From an uncultured delta proteobacterium (GTDB lineage Bacteria; Desulfobacterota; Binatia; UBA9968): 64,000 nt of DNA. The notes under the pieces are model-generated. The model saw nothing but the letters and a program-made list of their open reading frames with translations, ran no database searches and had not been told where the DNA came from. Location: contig CAWJBB010000061.1 in NCBI GenBank assembly GCA_963840855.1, forward strand, positions 119,252-183,251, in the 5' to 3' direction. The translations under genes were made by a program, and so were the position numbers. Below, in pieces: positions 45,561 to 54,100 of the stretch. Numbering within the stretch: position 1 is the first letter of the stretch; each line of letters begins with the position of its first letter.

Positions 45561-48500
45561 CGTTTCGTTCTCTCTGAAAAATGCTGAGTGCTCTGCCGGG
45601 GTTTCCGGCGATAACTTTGCCTTTCGCGTTTCGGCTTAGGCTCCTGAGAGAGCCATCGGAGCGCGTTTGGGTCATTGCCAGAATAGCGTCCCGGTCTAAG
45701 CACAATTGCAACGTGCCCTGCAAATTGGCAATGACACGGCGTTTACTTTCACGAATGACACGGCGTTTACTTTCACGATTGATCGGAGCGGTGATAGCTT
45801 TCATCTTTGGCTTCTTCTGTCTTAGAATCTTTCTATTAGTGTCTGCGGGTTAAAAACTATTGTTTACGTGTAGCGCGTGTAACCGCTCTGCGCATATCCA
45901 CGGACTGACCTCACGTTCCGCTGTCAGATATTTTAAAAGCTCTTTGGAGGTGCACGGACCGAACCGCCTTGACCCTAACCAGCGCCGCCAAATGTTGGGG
46001 CTCGTACCTCACACGGCCACTTTCAGCGCGCGTTTAGGCGCGGCGCGTTATCGCTTAAAACCCGCACGGGGCTATTCAGGTCCGGCCGTGGCGGCGCCTT
46101 GGTACAGACGTTCGGATCCTGAGCTCTGAGCTGCTTCTGCCGCGCCTCAGCTACCTTGTCGAGTCCGAGCTCGACGTACTTTTCATGAACGGCCATGTCG
46201 TACACGAAGTTCCACTCGGGAGCATAGCCCTTGGCCAACTCCCTGTAGTATATCGCCACGGCGCGACCGTTGATTTCTTCTAGGACAGCCTGCTGGGCTT
46301 CAAGTCTCGCTTGTTTCTCTTGGTAAGCCGCGCCTTGATCGTTGGGTAAAGTGATTACAAAAGCTGCTGTGGCTCCCATGATGGCGACCAGCTGGGCTCG
46401 TGCGGCAAGGAACTGCGTGCCTTTGCCAATGCCGTAGCCCACGGTCAGCGTCTGCGCTTTCTCCTTTGCGGAGCCTGGGCCGAACACCACCAAGGCCGTC
46501 GCCACCGTTGCGACAACTTTCGTCCCCAAACCTCCGCCGGTCTTGCCACCTTTGTCACCTTCTCCATTTCCTTTACCTCCGCCGCTCGGACCACCTCCTC
46601 CCCCATGGCCTCCCCCACCTCCGCCACCTCCTCCTCCGGGAGGGGGCGGTCCTCCTCCCCCGGGACGAGGCGGCCTAAGTAACTCCATGCCTTCGGCTAT
46701 CTTTTTCCCGTAGACGAGATTCCAATCATTAGCTCTGTGTATGCTTCCAACAGGCAATCCCGATTTGGTAAGCGCTCCCTTCAGTCGCTCGCCCGCTCGA
46801 ATAAGATCGTTGCGTTCTTCGTTAATGAACCTGATTCTTTGGCTAAGAAGGTCCCTCTCCCGTCCTGGTGCTGCTGCCAGTTCTTCAACAACAAAACGAT
46901 GGAGGTTCCTAACATCGGGCCTACTCAGGTATGCCGTCACACCAAGACGCCACTGCTCAATTAGTCGGAGCAGTTCGTTTTGGCTCCACGTTATCTCAGG
47001 TGCACAGCCTGTGAGATCAACATAATGGATTGGATTTGCACCCGAATAGCAGTACGGAGTCATGTGGGAGGACTCGGCCAGCAAAGGGTCAACCGACACC
47101 CACCTTGCTAACCAGTGAGCAAAGTATCGTGCTCCGTGATAATTCAATCCGCTCTCCTCATCCCGCTCCATCCCCGTATACCGATACCGCTTCAGACTCA
47201 CCTCCGCCGCGCTCCGCCCCGCTTGATACGACGTGCTACCGTAGGGGTAATACTCCTCATACGAAATGATCTGCCCAGCCCCATCCAACTCCAGAGAAGC
47301 CGAGCCCAGATGGTTACCGAACTGGTAGCGGATGAGTTGCTGTGGCGCGGGGTTGTTACCTGCGGTGTCGAGGGTGCGCGTTTCCACCAGGACGACGCGC
47401 TGCTGGTCGTCCATAATATGCAGCGTCTCGCGCTCCAGTTTCACCGTATCACTGTCGTTCTCATACTCGCGGTAGATCTCGAAGCCTCCCAAGTAGATGC
47501 GTTCTTTCAAAAGCGTAGGCGTTTGTCCTGCAGCGGCTTGGTGCTCAGTCACCTTGCGTACGCGCTGGCCTGATACGTCGTACACGTAATAGGTGGTTTC
47601 CGGCGGGCCGCTGTTGTTGACCTGTTTTGAGGTTGCCCGGAGCTGGTCTTTGAAGTCCCACTCCATCTTCAAGAGATGGGGCAACGAAGTCATATTGCCG
47701 TGGGCGTCGTGGGTATATGGCTCGACAATAGGCTGGCTGCCATTCGCGTGAACGACGGTGCTGCTCAGGCGGTTGTTCTTCTTGCCGGGCTCAATCAGGC
47801 TGGATTCGCGGTGTGTATAAGCGCGCGTCCAATTGCCATTGGCCGCTTGATGAATCAGCTGCTCGAAATTGCCGACAGCGTCGTACTCATACCTCTCGGT
47901 GTAGTTCCGCATTGCCTGGCCGTCGTGGGGGTGCTGAAGATTCACGCGAAACTGATCGTTCCAGGTAGTCTCAGGCCGTCCAAGCTGACCGATGTGTTCG
48001 CGGCCTTTGGCTTCGATCAGGCGATAGATGGCATCATAGACATAGTCGCAGTGCGGCTCGACGACCTGGCCGTTGAAGTAAATCGTCTGCTGAGCATTGT
48101 CCCCGATAGAGGTGATGTTTCCGACTGGATCATAAGTGTAGACGAGATCCTGCAACTGCTCTGCGCCCCGTAGCGTCTTCAGGCGAGCAAGTCGGAAAGT
48201 CAGCGAGTCGTATTCGTACGTCGTCCGGACGCCGTTGCCATAGTCGATCAAGCCCCGCTGGCCTTTCGCGTCGTAATCGATATCCGTAACGAAAGCGGTA
48301 GCGACCACTGCGCCGCGCAGATTGACATCCACTTTTTCCAACAGATTTGCCTCGCTGAACGTGGGGTGGATGACGCTGTTGTCCGGCGTAGTGAGGGTTA
48401 TTGGACGGTTGAGCGCGTCATATGTTGTGCGATTTCGGTAGGTCCGTGCTTCAAGCGGTACGGAGACCGACCAGTTCAGCGTCGTTTTGTACTCCTCGGC

Positions 48501-49649
48501 AAGCTGGCGCTGACTGCTTAGCAAGTTGCCTTTGAAATCGTAGTCGTCGCTGGTAATGACGCCTGCCTGGTCGAAGAGTTGAACCACCTTGCCGCGCAGG
48601 TTCCTGGCCTCGGGATTGGGCCGGGTTTCGCCATAGACGGTGCGCCCCACGTGCAGCTCTACACCGGCGCCTTCGCGCAAGAAGGAGTCCGTCGGTCGCC
48701 GTAGGCGGTCGTATGCGGTGCGAAACTGGTGATCGCGGCTGTCCCAGGCGTAAAGCGGATTGCCTGCGACATCGTTGAGCATCCAGCGCTCGCCGGCCTC
48801 CATGCTAGCCTGGCGGATGGCATTGCTCAGGATGTCGTAGTCGTAGCGCATGACGATGCGGTCCCTGGCATCGATCACTTCGCGCTGGTTGCCTTCGATG
48901 TCGAGCTCAACGCGGGTGGAATATTTCTCCTCGACAACAGCGCCACTCCGCTCGAACCGATTGTGCGCGAGAGTCAGGAAGGTGCGCCCCAGCGAGTCGG
49001 CGTGGGCGACGGTGGGCGTATCCGCGTGGACGGCCGCCTTTTCCGCAGCAGCCTGTTCATGTTGCCCAAGTTGACCGTTCTTCCGTGCCTCATGCCAGGT
49101 AGGGAGGTATTCCGTATCCGGCAAGCGAGTAAAGAACCCTTTGACGTCATCGTCTGTCCTGGGATTACGCATGACGGTGTCGTTGACGTCATAAGTCGTC
49201 TGTTGCCACGGATCGAAGACGACTTTTTCCCAAGTGTGGTTGGGGTGAAGCATTACGACGACGCGCTCGACCGGATCGTAAAAAAGAGTCGAGCTGACTC
49301 CTATGCGGACGTCGAACTCGAAGCGGTGGGTATCGGTAAAGAACGGCTCATACTGCTTGATGGGTTTGCCCTTGTTGTTGAAGATCGTCCAACCACTACC
49401 GACCCAGCGCGGACTGACTACGGGCCCGCCCTCGAGGACGGAACCGGGTTCGGCTTGTATCTTTTTCTGAATCTCACGACCGAAGCCGTCGGAATAACTC
49501 AGGCTCACCTGCACCTTCAGCCCACCGGGGGGGAGCGGATCGCTCGCGTGGGTTTCGCGGACGAGGGTGGCCGCAAACACCGGCTGTTGTGTCGCTCTAT
49601 ACCGATCCAAGTCGTACACGATCCGGGTCGTGGCCTTATATTAGTAAGG

Positions 49650-49850
49650 TCACGTTTATAGGTATAACGTAATTGGATTAACACCGATTCTGAGAGCTTG
49701 CTGGCATGAGGACCTTCGAGGCCTGATCCGCCATGAGGATCTGGGGCAGACTGTCCCGGCCAGCGAGAGAACGGAGCTAAAGGTTCAATAGAAAGTTGTC
49801 CCTTGGAGGACCGATATAAGGCGAACATTCCGTTCAGCGCTTTTAGAAAA
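49650..49850 (+). ncRNA. Predicted bridge RNA (ends approximate)
   Basis: Two internal loops whose guides match the target (TCGAGGCCT / GGGGCAG) and the donor (ATAGAAAGT / ATATAAG). Confidence 0.8.
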
Positions 49851-49879
49851 GGGAATAAAAAAAGAAGGAGTAGAAGAAC

Positions 49880-51106
49880 TTGGAGCGATACTATTTGGGT
49901 GTGGATTGGGCCGATGAGTTTCATCAGGTTTGGGTCGGCGATGTAGAGGGCAAAAAAGTAATCGAGATAAAACTGGCTCAGAAAGCCGAAGCCCTGAGTG
50001 AGTTTGGCCGCTGGCTCGACGAGCGTCGGGCGCAGGGGATCGAGTTGTGGGCGGCCATTGAGAAGCCACAAGGGCGGATTGTGGATTTTCTGTTGGATCA
50101 TGGGGTAGTGGTCTATCCGATCAATCCCAAGGCTTTGGATCGATCTCGGGATCGGTTTCGGATGAGCCAGTCCAAGAGCGATTCCTTTGATGCCTACGTG
50201 TTGGCGGATATTGTGAGGAGCGATCATGCCCGCTTGAGAGCCCTTCAACCCGATTCTGAGCAGGCCCAGGAACTTAAAATGCTCACTCGGGATCACCACC
50301 GTCTGGGGCGCCATAAAACGCGTATACGCAATCTGCTCGATCGCACCCTTAAAGAGTACTATCCACGGCCCTTGGAGGTGTTTGCTGATCTGGAATCGAA
50401 GATTGCCCTGGATTTTCTCACGAAGTATCCGACCCCCCAAGCCCTGTCGAATCTTAGCCGCAGAGAATGGAACCGCTTTGCCATGCGCGAGCATCATCTT
50501 GGTAAGGAGCGCTGTGAGCAGTTGTGGGAAGATCTCAATAAACCTCAACTGAAGGTTCCCGAGCATGTGGTGAGAGCCAAGTCGCAGTTGCTTGCGGTGC
50601 TCGTGGGTCAGCTCAAAACTTTGAGTGAAGCGGTGGATAGCTACCGCGAAAAGGTCCAACGTTTTTTCGCCTCTACGCCGGCATCTGATCTGGCCAAGAC
50701 GCTGCCGGGCGGCAAGAGTGGAACGACCATACCCATGCTTTGGGCTGAGCTGGGCGATACTGAGAGTCGATGGGTTTCTTTTCGTCACCTTCAGGCCGAG
50801 GCCGGTGCGGTGCCGGTGACCATAAAGAGTGGCAAGAGCTGTTTTGTACAGTTTCGTTATGCGTGTAACAAGCTGCTGCGTTATGCCACTTACTGGTTTT
50901 CCTTTAGCTCGCTCAATCGGTGCGAGTGGGCGGACAAATACTATCGCGACCAACGGGCGAAGGGACACAGCCATCCTCAAGCGCTTCGGGCTTTGGGAGC
51001 CAAGTGGCTCAAGATTATTTTCGTGATGTGGCGAGACCATAAACCGTACGACGAAAACTACCATTTGGCCAATATCACCAGGCAAAGAATGCGCCAGGCC
51101 ACATAA
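49880..51106 (+). CDS. IS110 family DEDD recombinase/transposase
   Basis: GVDWA, AIEKP, KSDSFDA (DEDD); C-terminal PVTIKSG serine motif; intact 408 aa. Confidence 0.92.
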   Translation: MERYYLGVDWADEFHQVWVGDVEGKKVIEIKLAQKAEALSEFGRWLDERRAQGIELWAAIEKPQGRIVDFLLDHGVVVYPINPKALDRSRDRFRMSQSKSDSFDAYVLADIVRSDHARLRALQPDSEQAQELKMLTRDHHRLGRHKTRIRNLLDRTLKEYYPRPLEVFADLESKIALDFLTKYPTPQALSNLSRREWNRFAMREHHLGKERCEQLWEDLNKPQLKVPEHVVRAKSQLLAVLVGQLKTLSEAVDSYREKVQRFFASTPASDLAKTLPGGKSGTTIPMLWAELGDTESRWVSFRHLQAEAGAVPVTIKSGKSCFVQFRYACNKLLRYATYWFSFSSLNRCEWADKYYRDQRAKGHSHPQALRALGAKWLKIIFVMWRDHKPYDENYHLANITRQRMRQAT

Positions 51107-54100
51107 AAAAAATCTATAAGGGGGCTTGACAAGTCTCATAGAAAGTCTGTCCCAGGAGGAGCGCGGCATTGCCCAGGGGCTCGGCGAGAAAAGTTTGACG
51201 TTGTTGTGAAGTCAAGTCCGGCACGAACCCTACGAGGGAGTCGCCCTTCGCATCGGTCACCTTTCCCATCACGGCGGTTCCGGCAACGAGCCCCAGCGTG
51301 TCGAAAGCCACCTCGGTACGATTGCCATTGGGGTCGGTCATCCGGAAAGGCTGGAGGAGACGGTAATCGTGCTCGGCGATCGTCTGATTGCCGAGTGCGT
51401 CGGTCGTCTGCTTGAGAAACAAATCGTAGGCGTCGTAGTCGACAAAGGCGGTATTGCCGAAGGGGTCGCGGGAGCGGTGCGTGGAATAGAAGTGCTGCCG
51501 GGCAAACGCGAACTCTTGAGTCGGCGTATCGGACACGTTCGGTGAGAAGAAAACCCGCCCCGAGGGAATCCACCAGTTGGCATCGCCTTCGCCGTGGACG
51601 TAGCCGCCTTCGGTGGCCAGCATCGGATCCGTGACCCTGGTGCCATAGACCTGCGCGAGTAGCCCGGTGGTGAAGGCAAGCTTGTAGCTTTCGCCCGGAA
51701 GCGCCAGCGACTCGAGGGCGCCCAAGGGCAGCAGGTCGGTCAGATCGTTCCGGCGATAGCGCGTGCGCACATGCTCGATGAGGCGCTTCTGTTCCCGGCC
51801 GAGGTCCGCGGTTTCCTCGTAGTTGATTTCGACCGCGTCAGAGAGCCGCGCGAAATCATCCTCCACCCATTCGTCGAAACTGAACTGCTTCGCATTGGCG
51901 GCGGGACTGAAGCCGGTCAACTCATAGGTGCGCGTTTCGCTCGGCAGGGGCGTCCGATAATTGTCGTGGTCGAGGAGTGGGTTATCGAGCCCGTTGGTGT
52001 ACCTGTTCTCCGTGTAAGTGATGAAAGTCCGGATCTGCTTGTCCCGATCCGCTTGTGTAGGCAGACCAGGATCGGGCTGCCGGCGGCCATAGCCGATGGC
52101 AACCGATCTCAGCGGATTGCCAAAGGCATCCACCTCCAACGTCAGCGTATGGCTGATGCGCGGATCGGCCGGGTTGCGTTCATAGTGGTAGCTCAGGCTT
52201 TCTATTGGATGGCTGAAATAGACCCCATGATTATTGCCATCCTTCGGCTGCACTTGTGTAACTCGATAGCGGTTTTCGGTTACCTGGTAGGGGTGCCCGG
52301 CCTTGCCGCTTCCATCGCGTGCGTACACTTCAGTCCGCAGTACCGCCCCGCGCAATGCACGGTAGGCCTCGTGGGGAGTCTCACCCGATTCGACTCTATG
52401 CTCGGCCACCGTGACGGCCTCTTGGTCGCCCTGGTAGAACTCCTTGCGGAACCTGTACGTCAACTCGATGTGGTCAAATGGAACGGTCCCCTGATGCGGC
52501 GGGTCCTCGAAGTAGATGCCGGTGTGAAACCACGAACGGGTTTTGACCGGAGGCACATGACAGGCCGAAGAATCGTTGCTGAATAAATCTCCGCTGCCAT
52601 GCAGGCTCGATCCTGTGAAATCCTCGAAGGTTTCGGTGTCGAATTGGTCCACCCGTCCGAAGCCGCGGAACTCCCGCTCACGCCCGTCAAAATACCCGTG
52701 GTGGTATTTGTACGTCGTGACCAGCTTCGTCTTGCTGACGTGGTCGATCACCTCAACTTTGTCGACGACTTGTACCGGGAACGGCAGCTTGGTGACCCAG
52801 GGGTTGCCGTTGGCTTGATCCTCTAGGAAGTATTTCGTCGAGGGCGCATAGCGCACCCGCGTGGTCGCGCCCATGTTGTTGCTCATTTCGGTGAGAACGT
52901 AGGGTTTGACGCCGCCGCAAAAATCGAGGGCTTTGTAATTCCCTCCGGGCTGAGTGGAATAATCGTAACTCCAGAGTAATGTCGCGGTGCCGGTTCCGAA
53001 TACGTCAGCAAATTGAATGGAGTCGACATCGCTTACGGTTGGGGTTCCCCGAATGGTCTCGGTGTGACTCCATCGGTTACCGGACTGATTGAACCAGAAA
53101 TGGACCCGGTCGAAGGCCACATACACAAGATCGGCACAGCCGGTCCCGTTCAGATCGGCTAGAAAAAGGCGTTTGGGATCGAAATCGAGCTCGAGATGGG
53201 GCGCGTTTCCCATCGTGATGCGCTTGCCGAAGTGACCATAGCCGAGGTTGGGCCAGTAATCGATTCGGCCGTTATGAATCAGGACGATGTCATTCAGTCC
53301 GTTTCCGGTCATGTCGGCCAAACGGACTCTTCCCGCAGGATCGTCGAAGAAGACATCCGGGAATTGGTCGAGATCGTGCCGGCGCGCGATGTAGCTCGGT
53401 GGGGCAAACCCCTTTTCGCCCAGACATTCGAACCACAGGAAATGATTCCCTTGGGTCATTAATGCATCCGACAAGCCATCTCCGGTGAGATCGACCAGAC
53501 GCACATTGGGATCGGCCAGTTCGAAACTGGGGAATACGTCGTAGGGCTTGAAGGTTTGCCAGGTTCCGTCCGACGTGGTCTCGAAGAACCCCGGCAACGG
53601 ACCCGAATGTACCAACAAATCGGCTTGGCCATCGCCGCCCATGTCGCCAAATCCCACGCCGGCCTGAGCCAGAGCGATGCCGGCGGGAATCTGGGGCATG
53701 GATCGCGGCCGGTCCAACAACCCGCCGCCGAGGTTTCTCCAGTAACGGAATCCGAAGGGACCGCTATGGAGCACATCCGGTATTCCGTCGCCGAATAAGT
53801 CGACCAATGCCATATTCGGGTCGTTGAGGGCGAACGGCGGCAAGTCGCTGCCTTGGGCCGCCAGCGATTGATAGCGTTGCGCATGCGGCCTGAACTCCGA
53901 ATACCCAAAGGTTACCGGGGGTATGCCGGCCGATTGATAGGCACCCGCTGCATCCTTTCGATAGCTGATGACGGTGACAGCGATGAGGAAAGACAGGAGG
54001 GTGTCTGGATCGTTGCGATAGTCGAAATCGGTAGACCGGACGAGCGTCGGGCCTCCAAGCTCAGCAAAGTGGTGGAACATCAAGACCCGGCGGCAGCGCC

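Follow-up and report, generated by a model that had tools for sequence, protein, structure and literature searches.

The window analysed here, a stretch of 64,000 nucleotides (nt) of contig CAWJBB010000061.1 from an uncultured delta proteobacterium of the Binatia, very probably carries at positions 49635-51148 an intact and autonomous IS110-group element, which encodes a DEDD/Ser recombinase together with a left-end bridge RNA of ~190 nt that specifies both the element's ends and its target. The element is 1514 bp long and is laid out as a 243-nt left end, an open reading frame (ORF) for a recombinase of 408 amino acids (aa) and a 40-nt right end. It has the core dinucleotide CT at both junctions, no long terminal inverted repeats and a left end far longer than the right, and we observed a short ATA...TAT subterminal repeat around the donor. 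At the left junction the host DNA ends in TCGTGGC and is followed by the core and then by TATAT (49637-41); at the right junction ATAGAAAGT is followed by the core and then by the host flank GTCCC. An original prediction, made from the letters and their reading frames without database searches, had called the bounds, flanks, cores and donor letters, and every coordinate and letter of it proved right when checked on the sequence.

The left end folds as a 5' hairpin followed by two stem-loops, with four guides in the internal loops of these two. In loop 1, TCGAGGCCT at 49716-24 matches the left target flank (LT) and core at 8 of 9 positions, and GGGGCAG at 49743-49 is the reverse complement of the core and right target flank (RT) save for one G:T pair; these contain the left and right target guides (LTG and RTG). 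In loop 2, the left donor guide (LDG) matches the terminus of the right end at 9 of 9 positions, the right donor guide (RDG) is an exact 7/7 reverse complement of the core and TATAT, and a GTCC/GGAC stem stands between them. All four guides had been read correctly in the original prediction, which also described the insertion site as carrying two mismatches; measured against its guides, the window copy (copy A) scores 6/7 at the LT and 4/5 at the RT, or 5/5 with the G:T pair, so that the two amount to one true mismatch and one wobble. When the 238-nt left end was shuffled 20,000 times, the four matches arose singly 46, 607, 224 and 8787 times, and all four together not once. As a set, the four guide matches are not due to chance, and the homologs settle the question.

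Among the 99 loci that we collected, 17 have no recognisable loop 1, mostly on truncated contigs, and 19 of the 82 records that do have one lack one flank. The second copy in the same genome, L002 (copy B, on the minus strand), was missed by the search pattern and entered the guide test by hand, and L017, whose loop the pattern mis-cut, was excluded from the guide-match, core-letter and per-position tests. The guide test covers 62 unique insertions with both flanks, which fall into 44 guide classes, each entered by one representative. The mean match of the LTG to its own left flank is 5.80 of 7 positions, compared with 3.64 for permuted pairs (sd 0.16, max 4.27), and that of the RTG to its own right flank is 4.80 of 5, compared with 2.13 (sd 0.18, max 2.84); none of 10,000 permutations reaches either value. 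With G:U pairs allowed, the means rise to 6.32 and 4.91. Over the 62 unique insertions, the RT matches at 5/5 in 48 and 4/5 in 14, and the LT at 7/7 in 18, 6/7 in 17, 5/7 in 18 and 4/7 in 9. Resolved by position in the 44 classes, the RT match holds at 0.89-1.0 from +1 to +5 and then drops sharply, with 0.16 at +6, and LT positions -1 to -7 match at 0.66-1.0 against 0.27-0.91 in permuted pairs, staying above the permuted level for seven to eight positions. The left guide thus spans 7-8 nt and the right guide 5 nt, which supports a target of 7+2+5 nt. Classes with quite different targets (for example ...TCCC-CT-CGGTC and ...TACGC-CT-CAGCT) still follow their own guides. The comparison of other copies and their flanks that had been proposed as a check thus shows guides tracking flanks over 44 classes; an absence of covariation between guides and targets, which had been named as grounds for giving up the idea, is not what we find.

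The donor guides are conserved across the homologs, as is reported for IS621, and where the ends differ the guides differ likewise. The LDG and the right end both read ATAGGAAGT in L012 and ATAGAATGT in L006, L031 and L048; in L013, where the right end was read by eye, both read ATAGTAAGT, and in L013 and L092 an RDG of ATAGAAG is accompanied by a left end of CT-TCTAT. As a separate observation, the right end of three copies of a sister element in the same genome finishes in ATAGAATGT while their LDG reads ATAGAAAGT; either this single mismatch is tolerated at that position, or the sister element is a chimera of two lineages.

Beyond the features that had been named in the original prediction, we find a dinucleotide 3' of each right guide at the positions that handshake guides occupy in IS621, as that complex is described in PMC11208158. 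All 82 records have AC as the two nt 3' of the RTG; this is the complement of donor positions 6-7, where GT stands in 66 of 66. The two nt 3' of the RDG read GC in every one of 81 records, and on the target side C occupies position 7 in 68 of 71 unique left flanks, with GC at positions 6-7 in 30 of the 71. The ends also hold the two halves of a split promoter, which would face each other across the circle junction at a spacing of 17 nt, a spacing kept in 63 of 66 records. The left end begins TATATT in 62 of the 63 right-end-bearing records in which a left end was found, and three further records of the 66 have no left end. Because the -35 box was part of the search pattern, the informative result here is the spacing alone. 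In the integrated copy we found no promoter-like site, which fits the published model, as outlined in PMC11208160, of a promoter reconstituted at the circle junction by excision.

The predicted RNA has both a stable fold and a conserved scaffold. The minimum free energy (MFE) fold of 49637-49879 is -72.2 kcal/mol, compared with -58.7 +/- 4.5 for shuffled sequences (z = -3.0; 1 of 200 shuffles folds as well), and it includes the loop-1 stems that had been proposed. All of the proposed stems are complementary letter by letter: GATCC/GGATC, GGAC/GTCC and GCTGGC/GCCAGC (49700-05/49759-64) in the target-binding loop (TBL), and GTCC/GGAC as the inner stem of the donor-binding loop (DBL). When 63 unique left ends are aligned, the scaffold hardly varies, whereas the LTG and the RTG stand out as two hypervariable blocks. 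Six helices, comprising 33 pairs placed by hand, are 93.7% paired in the 63 sequences, compared with 24-48% when one side is shifted against the other by 1-3 columns. TBL helices 1-3 are paired at 93.0, 100 and 82.5%, with double (compensatory) changes in 9 of 18 pairs, and DBL helices 4-6 at 95.7, 92.9 and 100%, with double changes in 5 of 15. Changes on both sides thus occur at 14 of the 33 pairs, against 4.4 in shuffles, and none of 500 shuffles reaches 14. RNAalifold independently arrives at the loop-1 stems and joins the left-end terminus to the RDG by base pairs, where 2 of 63 sequences have C-G in place of A-U, a compensatory change. R1, a covariance model built on loops 1 and 2, matches exactly the five copies in the element's own genome, at 158-164 bits. 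The fold and the covariance model had both been suggested beforehand as checks. The scaffold of 5' hairpin, TBL and DBL is conserved with compensatory changes.

The recombinase has both domains of the IS110 family. The protein matches DEDD_Tnp_IS110 (PF01548) with an E value of 1.6e-30 and 106.4 bits (cut-off 29), with residues 6-162 spanning positions 1-155 of the 155-position profile, and Transposase_20 (PF02371) with an E value of 8.9e-6 and 26.4 bits (cut-off 21.3). Its homologs start with TTG, GTG or ATG at the equivalent place. The sole sequence match in the PDB is the IS621 transposase (E 3.2e-6), whose catalytic residues are given in PMC11208158 as D11, E60, D102, D105 and S241. Residues D9, D101, D104 and S317 align directly with the catalytic Asp, Asp, Asp and Ser of IS621, S317 with the Ser of the SG motif; E61 is two residues off in the HMMER alignment but ends the equivalent strand. 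All five residues are the same in every one of 56 unique full-length homologs, which are 40-93% identical; L016 and L063 were left out of this alignment because of stop codons in their frames. An AlphaFold2 model built with 22 homologs (predicted local distance difference test score 85.7, predicted template modelling score 0.78) was compared with known structures by Foldseek. The top 10 matches listed are all chains of IS621 or ISCro4 bridge-recombinase complexes, with E values from 1.1e-10 to 7.4e-10 and target template modelling (TM) scores of 0.54-0.56, the best being 8wt9_A at 1.1e-10; Nop5 and TIGR-Tas proteins come next, at about 1e-4.

The element has in common with IS621, as the latter is described in PMC11208160 and PMC11208158, the CT cores, the lack of long inverted repeats and the short ATA...TAT repeat around the donor. 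Going by the published descriptions, the likeness extends to the long left and short right ends with a promoter split across the circle junction, to an RNA made of a 5' hairpin with target- and donor-binding loops, and to guides of which the LTG and LDG read as the top strand and the RTG and RDG are complementary to it. Two-nt handshake positions 3' of the RTG and RDG, the catalytic D, E, D, D and Ser, and REP-like natural targets (REP, repetitive extragenic palindrome) complete the correspondence as far as those descriptions go. The IS621-type architecture that had been proposed for the RNA is therefore borne out: the defining features that can be looked for in sequence are present, save that pairing of both target guides with the core is seen in the window element but not throughout its clade, the guides covary with the flanks, and the protein is predicted to fold like those of IS621 and ISCro4. 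Unlike IS621, whose PDB chain has 328 residues, the window element encodes a protein of 408 aa, with ~19% identity in the structural alignment and a TM score of 0.55. The RTG of the window clade reads 5 nt past the core, whereas in the IS621 structure, as described, the RTG pairs four positions including the core; longer RTGs in some IS621 orthologs are already noted in PMC11208160. ISCro4 (PDB 9t56, a synaptic complex) is the second-best structural match, with an E value of 1.5e-10 and a target TM score of 0.56, and belongs to the same class of bridge recombinases; identity is ~18%, and the likeness is judged on the protein alone, the entry being known by its PDB title. In the IS1111 group, the guide RNA of the right end is called seekRNA. 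According to the account in PMC11208160, that group has a DEDD-family recombinase and RNA-guided target choice in common with the window element. It differs in carrying the RNA in a long right end and in having subterminal repeats of 7-17 bp. ISPpu10 and ISPpu9 of Pseudomonas putida resemble the window clade, as far as their descriptions go, in being IS110-family elements that insert into repeated extragenic sequences; ISPpu10 is reported there to have no 5' stem-loop and to need a target hairpin, whereas a 5' hairpin is predicted for the window element.

The two target guides of the clade differ in how they face the core. The RTG carries the complement of the core in all 54 guide classes. The core-facing letters of the LTG are CU in 25 of the 54; where the register is secure (an LT match of 6/7 or better), they are CU in 11 of 34 classes and not CU in 23. 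The window element itself pairs the core with both guides (LTG CU, RTG AG). In IS621, by contrast, pairing to both core strands is described in the bridge-RNA literature as "strongly preferred". The LTG of the clade usually would not pair with the second core base and often with neither, and we put forward tentatively, as the less probable view, that if this reflects function the core is read asymmetrically, the top strand by the RNA and the bottom strand by the protein or not at all, within a target of 14-15 nt. If this were true, asymmetric core reading would be a mechanistic variant of IS621-type bridge recombination, with 44 natural guide/target pairs from which its rules might be learned. 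In loop 1 of the homologs (alignment A2, about columns 31-33), the core-facing LTG letters are CG, CA, CC or GA in most classes. We also note that the left-junction core is AT in L017 and L035 and CC in L042 rather than CT; the right junction of L035 and L042 is CT. These left cores may be the trace of insertion at targets with a core other than CT.

Five copies are present in the element's own genome: two that are 100% identical over 1514 bp at different sites (copies A and B) and three of a sister element of 78% identity. The fact that a second, fully identical copy lies elsewhere in the genome suggests recent movement. Copy B lies on contig C18, which stops 10 nt past its left end. The sister copies (L003-L005, at G000:C81:64972-66492, C65:121143-122664 and C35:23247-24768) differ at 28 of 1522 positions, and in the C81 copy a 1-nt deletion breaks the recombinase frame (238 aa). 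The C65 copy has one LTG and one RTG change, and the right flank agrees with its altered RTG, having GTCCT in place of GCCCT. Two of about 21 C65-specific differences fall in the about 13 guide nt of the 1522, which is no more than suggestive of guide divergence beyond chance. The original prediction had called the element intact and probably active. The former stands, with a full ORF and five catalytic residues, and activity is backed only indirectly, by the identical second copy, the intact ORF and the junction promoter.

Relatives of the element came from a genome collection (14 loci, in metagenome-assembled genomes (MAGs) labelled Candidatus Binatia, Deltaproteobacteria, Latescibacterota and others) and a metagenome collection (80 loci). 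Most members of the clade come from soil metagenomes or from MAGs with the label Binatia or Deltaproteobacteria. R1 has matches in 15 of 61 related genomes, its own included (two of the 15, G009 and G015, are unpublished), and the distribution is patchy, as of a mobile element. Of 24 public sequencing runs listed, all as contigs only, we compared four. Queried with window positions 49632-51153, runs X2, X15 and X4 hold an element of 93-99% identity at a different site, which agrees with the window site only at the three left positions nearest the core, at the core itself and at the five positions to its right. The X4 element has a G-to-A change in its LTG at window position 49718. The genome of the window also has 18 DEDD_Tnp_IS110 matches, 16 of them over the cut-off, which form several distinct groups.

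The natural sites of the clade include a repeat. In its own genome there are 34 copies of a REP-like repeat, GCCTG[CT]CCTGAG, most with a TCGAAGG-like motif within about ten nt and often within a longer hairpin (for example G000:C75:32483, C87:64253 and C41:51145; loci L111-L114). The REP-like repeat holds copy B, the sister copy of C65 and numerous copies from metagenomes, but not copy A. Judged from these flanks, the clade uses the REP-like repeat as a landing pad, as IS621 does, and in this genome the repeat is a landing pad for at least two related IS110 lineages. An Rfam search of four copies of the repeat gave nothing at or near the gathering score. One of the 18 DEDD_Tnp_IS110 matches (C83:33482) lies ~130 nt downstream of another copy of the repeat. 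The guides themselves predict TCGAGGC-CT-GCCCC as a preferred target, as the original prediction had put it, and the genome lends this no support: at up to two mismatches this 14-mer has 87 sites, against 95.4 expected, and is not enriched. Just left of the window insertion, a terminator scan marked a 6-bp hairpin in the host DNA (CACGAT...GTCGTG, 49617-49632), which could be the counterpart of the target hairpin of ISPpu10 but is probably due to chance; the other flanks have no obvious equivalent.

By analogy with IS621, the element would excise as a circle, in which the -35 box of the right end would be joined to the -10 box of the left end at 17 nt and so turn on the bridge RNA. A tetramer of the recombinase would hold this RNA, which would pair with the circle junction and with a 14-nt target, N7-CT-N5, on both strands of each; Ser317, with D9, E61, D101 and D104, would cut and exchange strands beside the CT, and the handshake guides AC and GC would stabilise the exchanged strands. 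The window copy landed in its host gene, one resembling a toxin-complex (Tc) gene, where the site differs from the guides by a single true mismatch and a G:T pair, and the usual targets of the clade in this genome are copies of the REP-like repeat.

A number of observations weigh against an element guided in this way. Relative to the inner stem, the LTG occurs in three different registers, of which the best was taken; this choice was the same for real and permuted pairs in the test of means, and in the per-position table the register was picked on the true flank. The flanks of the homologs were located by patterns that assume conserved ends. The donor covariation comes from few variants (L006/L031/L048, L012 and L013/L092), and the RTG match alone is not significant, since 44% of shuffles (8787 of 20,000) give it. 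An Rfam 15 search of the element returned no family, its only two matches at E values up to 10 being unrelated and scoring 15.3 and 14.3 bits against gathering scores of 50 and 100; the RNA was therefore assigned from our own alignment and published descriptions. That the transposase binds the end-sequence repeats of the left end as DNA sites (subterminal repeats rather than RNA guides), and that loop 1 resembles the flanks by coincidence, would accord with the commonness of the RTG match in shuffles and with the RNA itself not having been observed. We find this hardly credible: the host DNA that loop 1 matches lies outside the element, and the two change together across the 44 classes, the guides lie in the internal loops of helices kept by compensatory changes, and both of the proteins whose fold the recombinase resembles, IS621 and ISCro4, were solved with bridge RNA bound.

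An RNA-guided element may still choose its targets mainly by other means than full pairing, such as recognition of a REP-like hairpin or repeat by the complex, as is reported for ISPpu10, or the right guide plus two or three left positions, in which case the window insertion would be off-target and the 14-mer not a real specificity. In favour of this, the left match is loose in the element's own genome: copy B matches at only 4/7, and the C81, C65 and C35 sister copies at 5/7, 4/7 and 4/7, so that with copy A the LT range is 4-6/7 while the RT reaches 5/5 with wobble (copy B itself has 4/5). The genome has no site within one mismatch of the 14-mer, against 5.1 expected, and 34 REP-like repeats, in which copy B, the C65 copy and many metagenome copies lie; one preprint reports a required target hairpin (10.64898/2026.03.19.712850), and another insertion at an off-target site matching by half (10.64898/2026.08.31.748434). 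We nevertheless judge target choice of this kind unlikely, because the LTG is well above the permuted level at all seven positions over the 44 classes, 18 of the 62 unique insertions have a 7/7 LT, classes with very different targets still follow their guides, and the window site lies within a coding gene rather than a repeat. The copy could also be a stranded relic, with the anatomy of a bridge RNA but no longer mobile, whose guides record a past insertion. Contigs of the four runs include none that joins the right end to the left end or spans an empty site, which is no evidence for or against such a junction or site; the integrated copy has no promoter-like site, and the broken frame of the C81 sister copy shows that decay does occur in this genome. 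In one RNA library, contigs cover the left end, and these may be DNA or read-through, since one of them extends 73 nt into the flanking DNA. An immobile copy is quite improbable given the two identical copies at different sites, the intact ORF with all five catalytic residues, the split promoter at consensus spacing and the copies of 93-99% identity at a different site in other runs.

The element is a further example of the bridge-RNA mechanism described in 2024, in one more clade, and the gain is a modest one: a clade whose protein is larger and whose right guide has 5 nt, which offers 44 natural guide classes together with their insertion sites, and in which pairing of the LTG to the core is frequently lost. 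This natural set of guides and targets could inform design rules for programmable recombinases. The case also shows that all four guides of a bridge RNA can be read correctly from raw sequence without tools.

Table 1. Features of the IS110-group element and of the host gene that it interrupts (window positions)
Feature	Position	Strand	Remarks
Downstream fragment of split host gene, TcC-like	46023..49634	-	RHS_repeat 5e-6
Left target flank (LT), TCGTGGC, 7 nt of host DNA	49628..49634	+	6/7 match to LTG
Core dinucleotide CT, left junction	49635..49636	+	CT in 53/54 guide classes
Right-donor arm TATAT (49637-41) and -10 hexamer TATATT	49637..49642	+	Complementary to RDG
5' stem-loop of predicted bridge RNA	49641..49681	+	MFE fold; variable, aligns poorly among homologs
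Target-binding loop (TBL), predicted	49697..49767	+	Outer stem 49697-705/49759-67, middle 49710-13/49753-56, inner 49725-29/49737-41
Left target guide (LTG), CGAGGC and core-facing CU	49717..49724	+	9-mer of the original prediction begins at 49716; hypervariable in alignments A1/A2
Right target guide (RTG), GGGGC and core-facing AG	49743..49749	+	RT +1 to +5 match, 44 classes
Putative TBL handshake guide AC	49750..49751	+	Complementary to donor positions 6-7 (GT, 51145-46); role by analogy with IS621
Donor-binding loop (DBL), predicted	49769..49835	+	Outer stem 49769-75/49829-35, middle 49783-86/49823-26, inner 49798-801/49808-11
Left donor guide (LDG), ATAGAAAGT	49788..49796	+	9/9 to right-end terminus
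Right donor guide (RDG), ATATAAG	49814..49820	+	Exact reverse complement of core and TATAT (7/7)
Putative DBL handshake guide GC	49821..49822	+	Complementary to target positions 6-7 (GC, 49633-34)
Ribosome-binding site AAGGAG	49865..49870	+	9 nt before TTG start
Recombinase gene, 408 aa, TTG start	49880..51106	+	RuvC-like DEDD domain, then a long helical linker and a Tnp domain bearing the catalytic Ser
-35 hexamer TTGACA of split promoter	51126..51131	+	17 nt from -10 TATATT (49637-42) across circle junction
Left-donor arm (LD), ATAGAAAGT, terminus of right end	51138..51146	+	
Core dinucleotide CT, right junction	51147..51148	+	CT in 66/66 records with right end
Right target flank (RT), GTCCC, 5 nt of host DNA	51149..51153	+	4/5 to RTG, 5/5 with G:T
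Upstream fragment of split host gene, TcB-like	51149..55175	-	SpvB 2.8e-89, TcdB_toxin_midN 1e-37, TcdB_toxin_midC 1.9e-36, FG-GAP_3 1.7e-13

The very large host gene that the element interrupts is, from the SpvB, TcdB and FG-GAP domains of its upstream fragment and the RHS repeats of its downstream fragment, a homolog of TcB/TcC-type toxin-complex genes. In the downstream fragment, the RHS repeats are followed by a Gly/Pro-rich stretch. A search for the empty site by DNA found 4 of 41 genomes that match the 500 nt left of the junction, with alignments that end 138 nt short of it, and the two fragments were therefore compared at the protein level, each alone. Uninterrupted homologs are present in a same-genus genome (L101 and L104), and in such a homolog the end of one fragment and the start of the other fall in a single frame, separated by exactly one codon. 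The fact that the fragments abut in this way indicates a simple insertion, and the insertion of the element explains why this large Tc-toxin-like gene is split.

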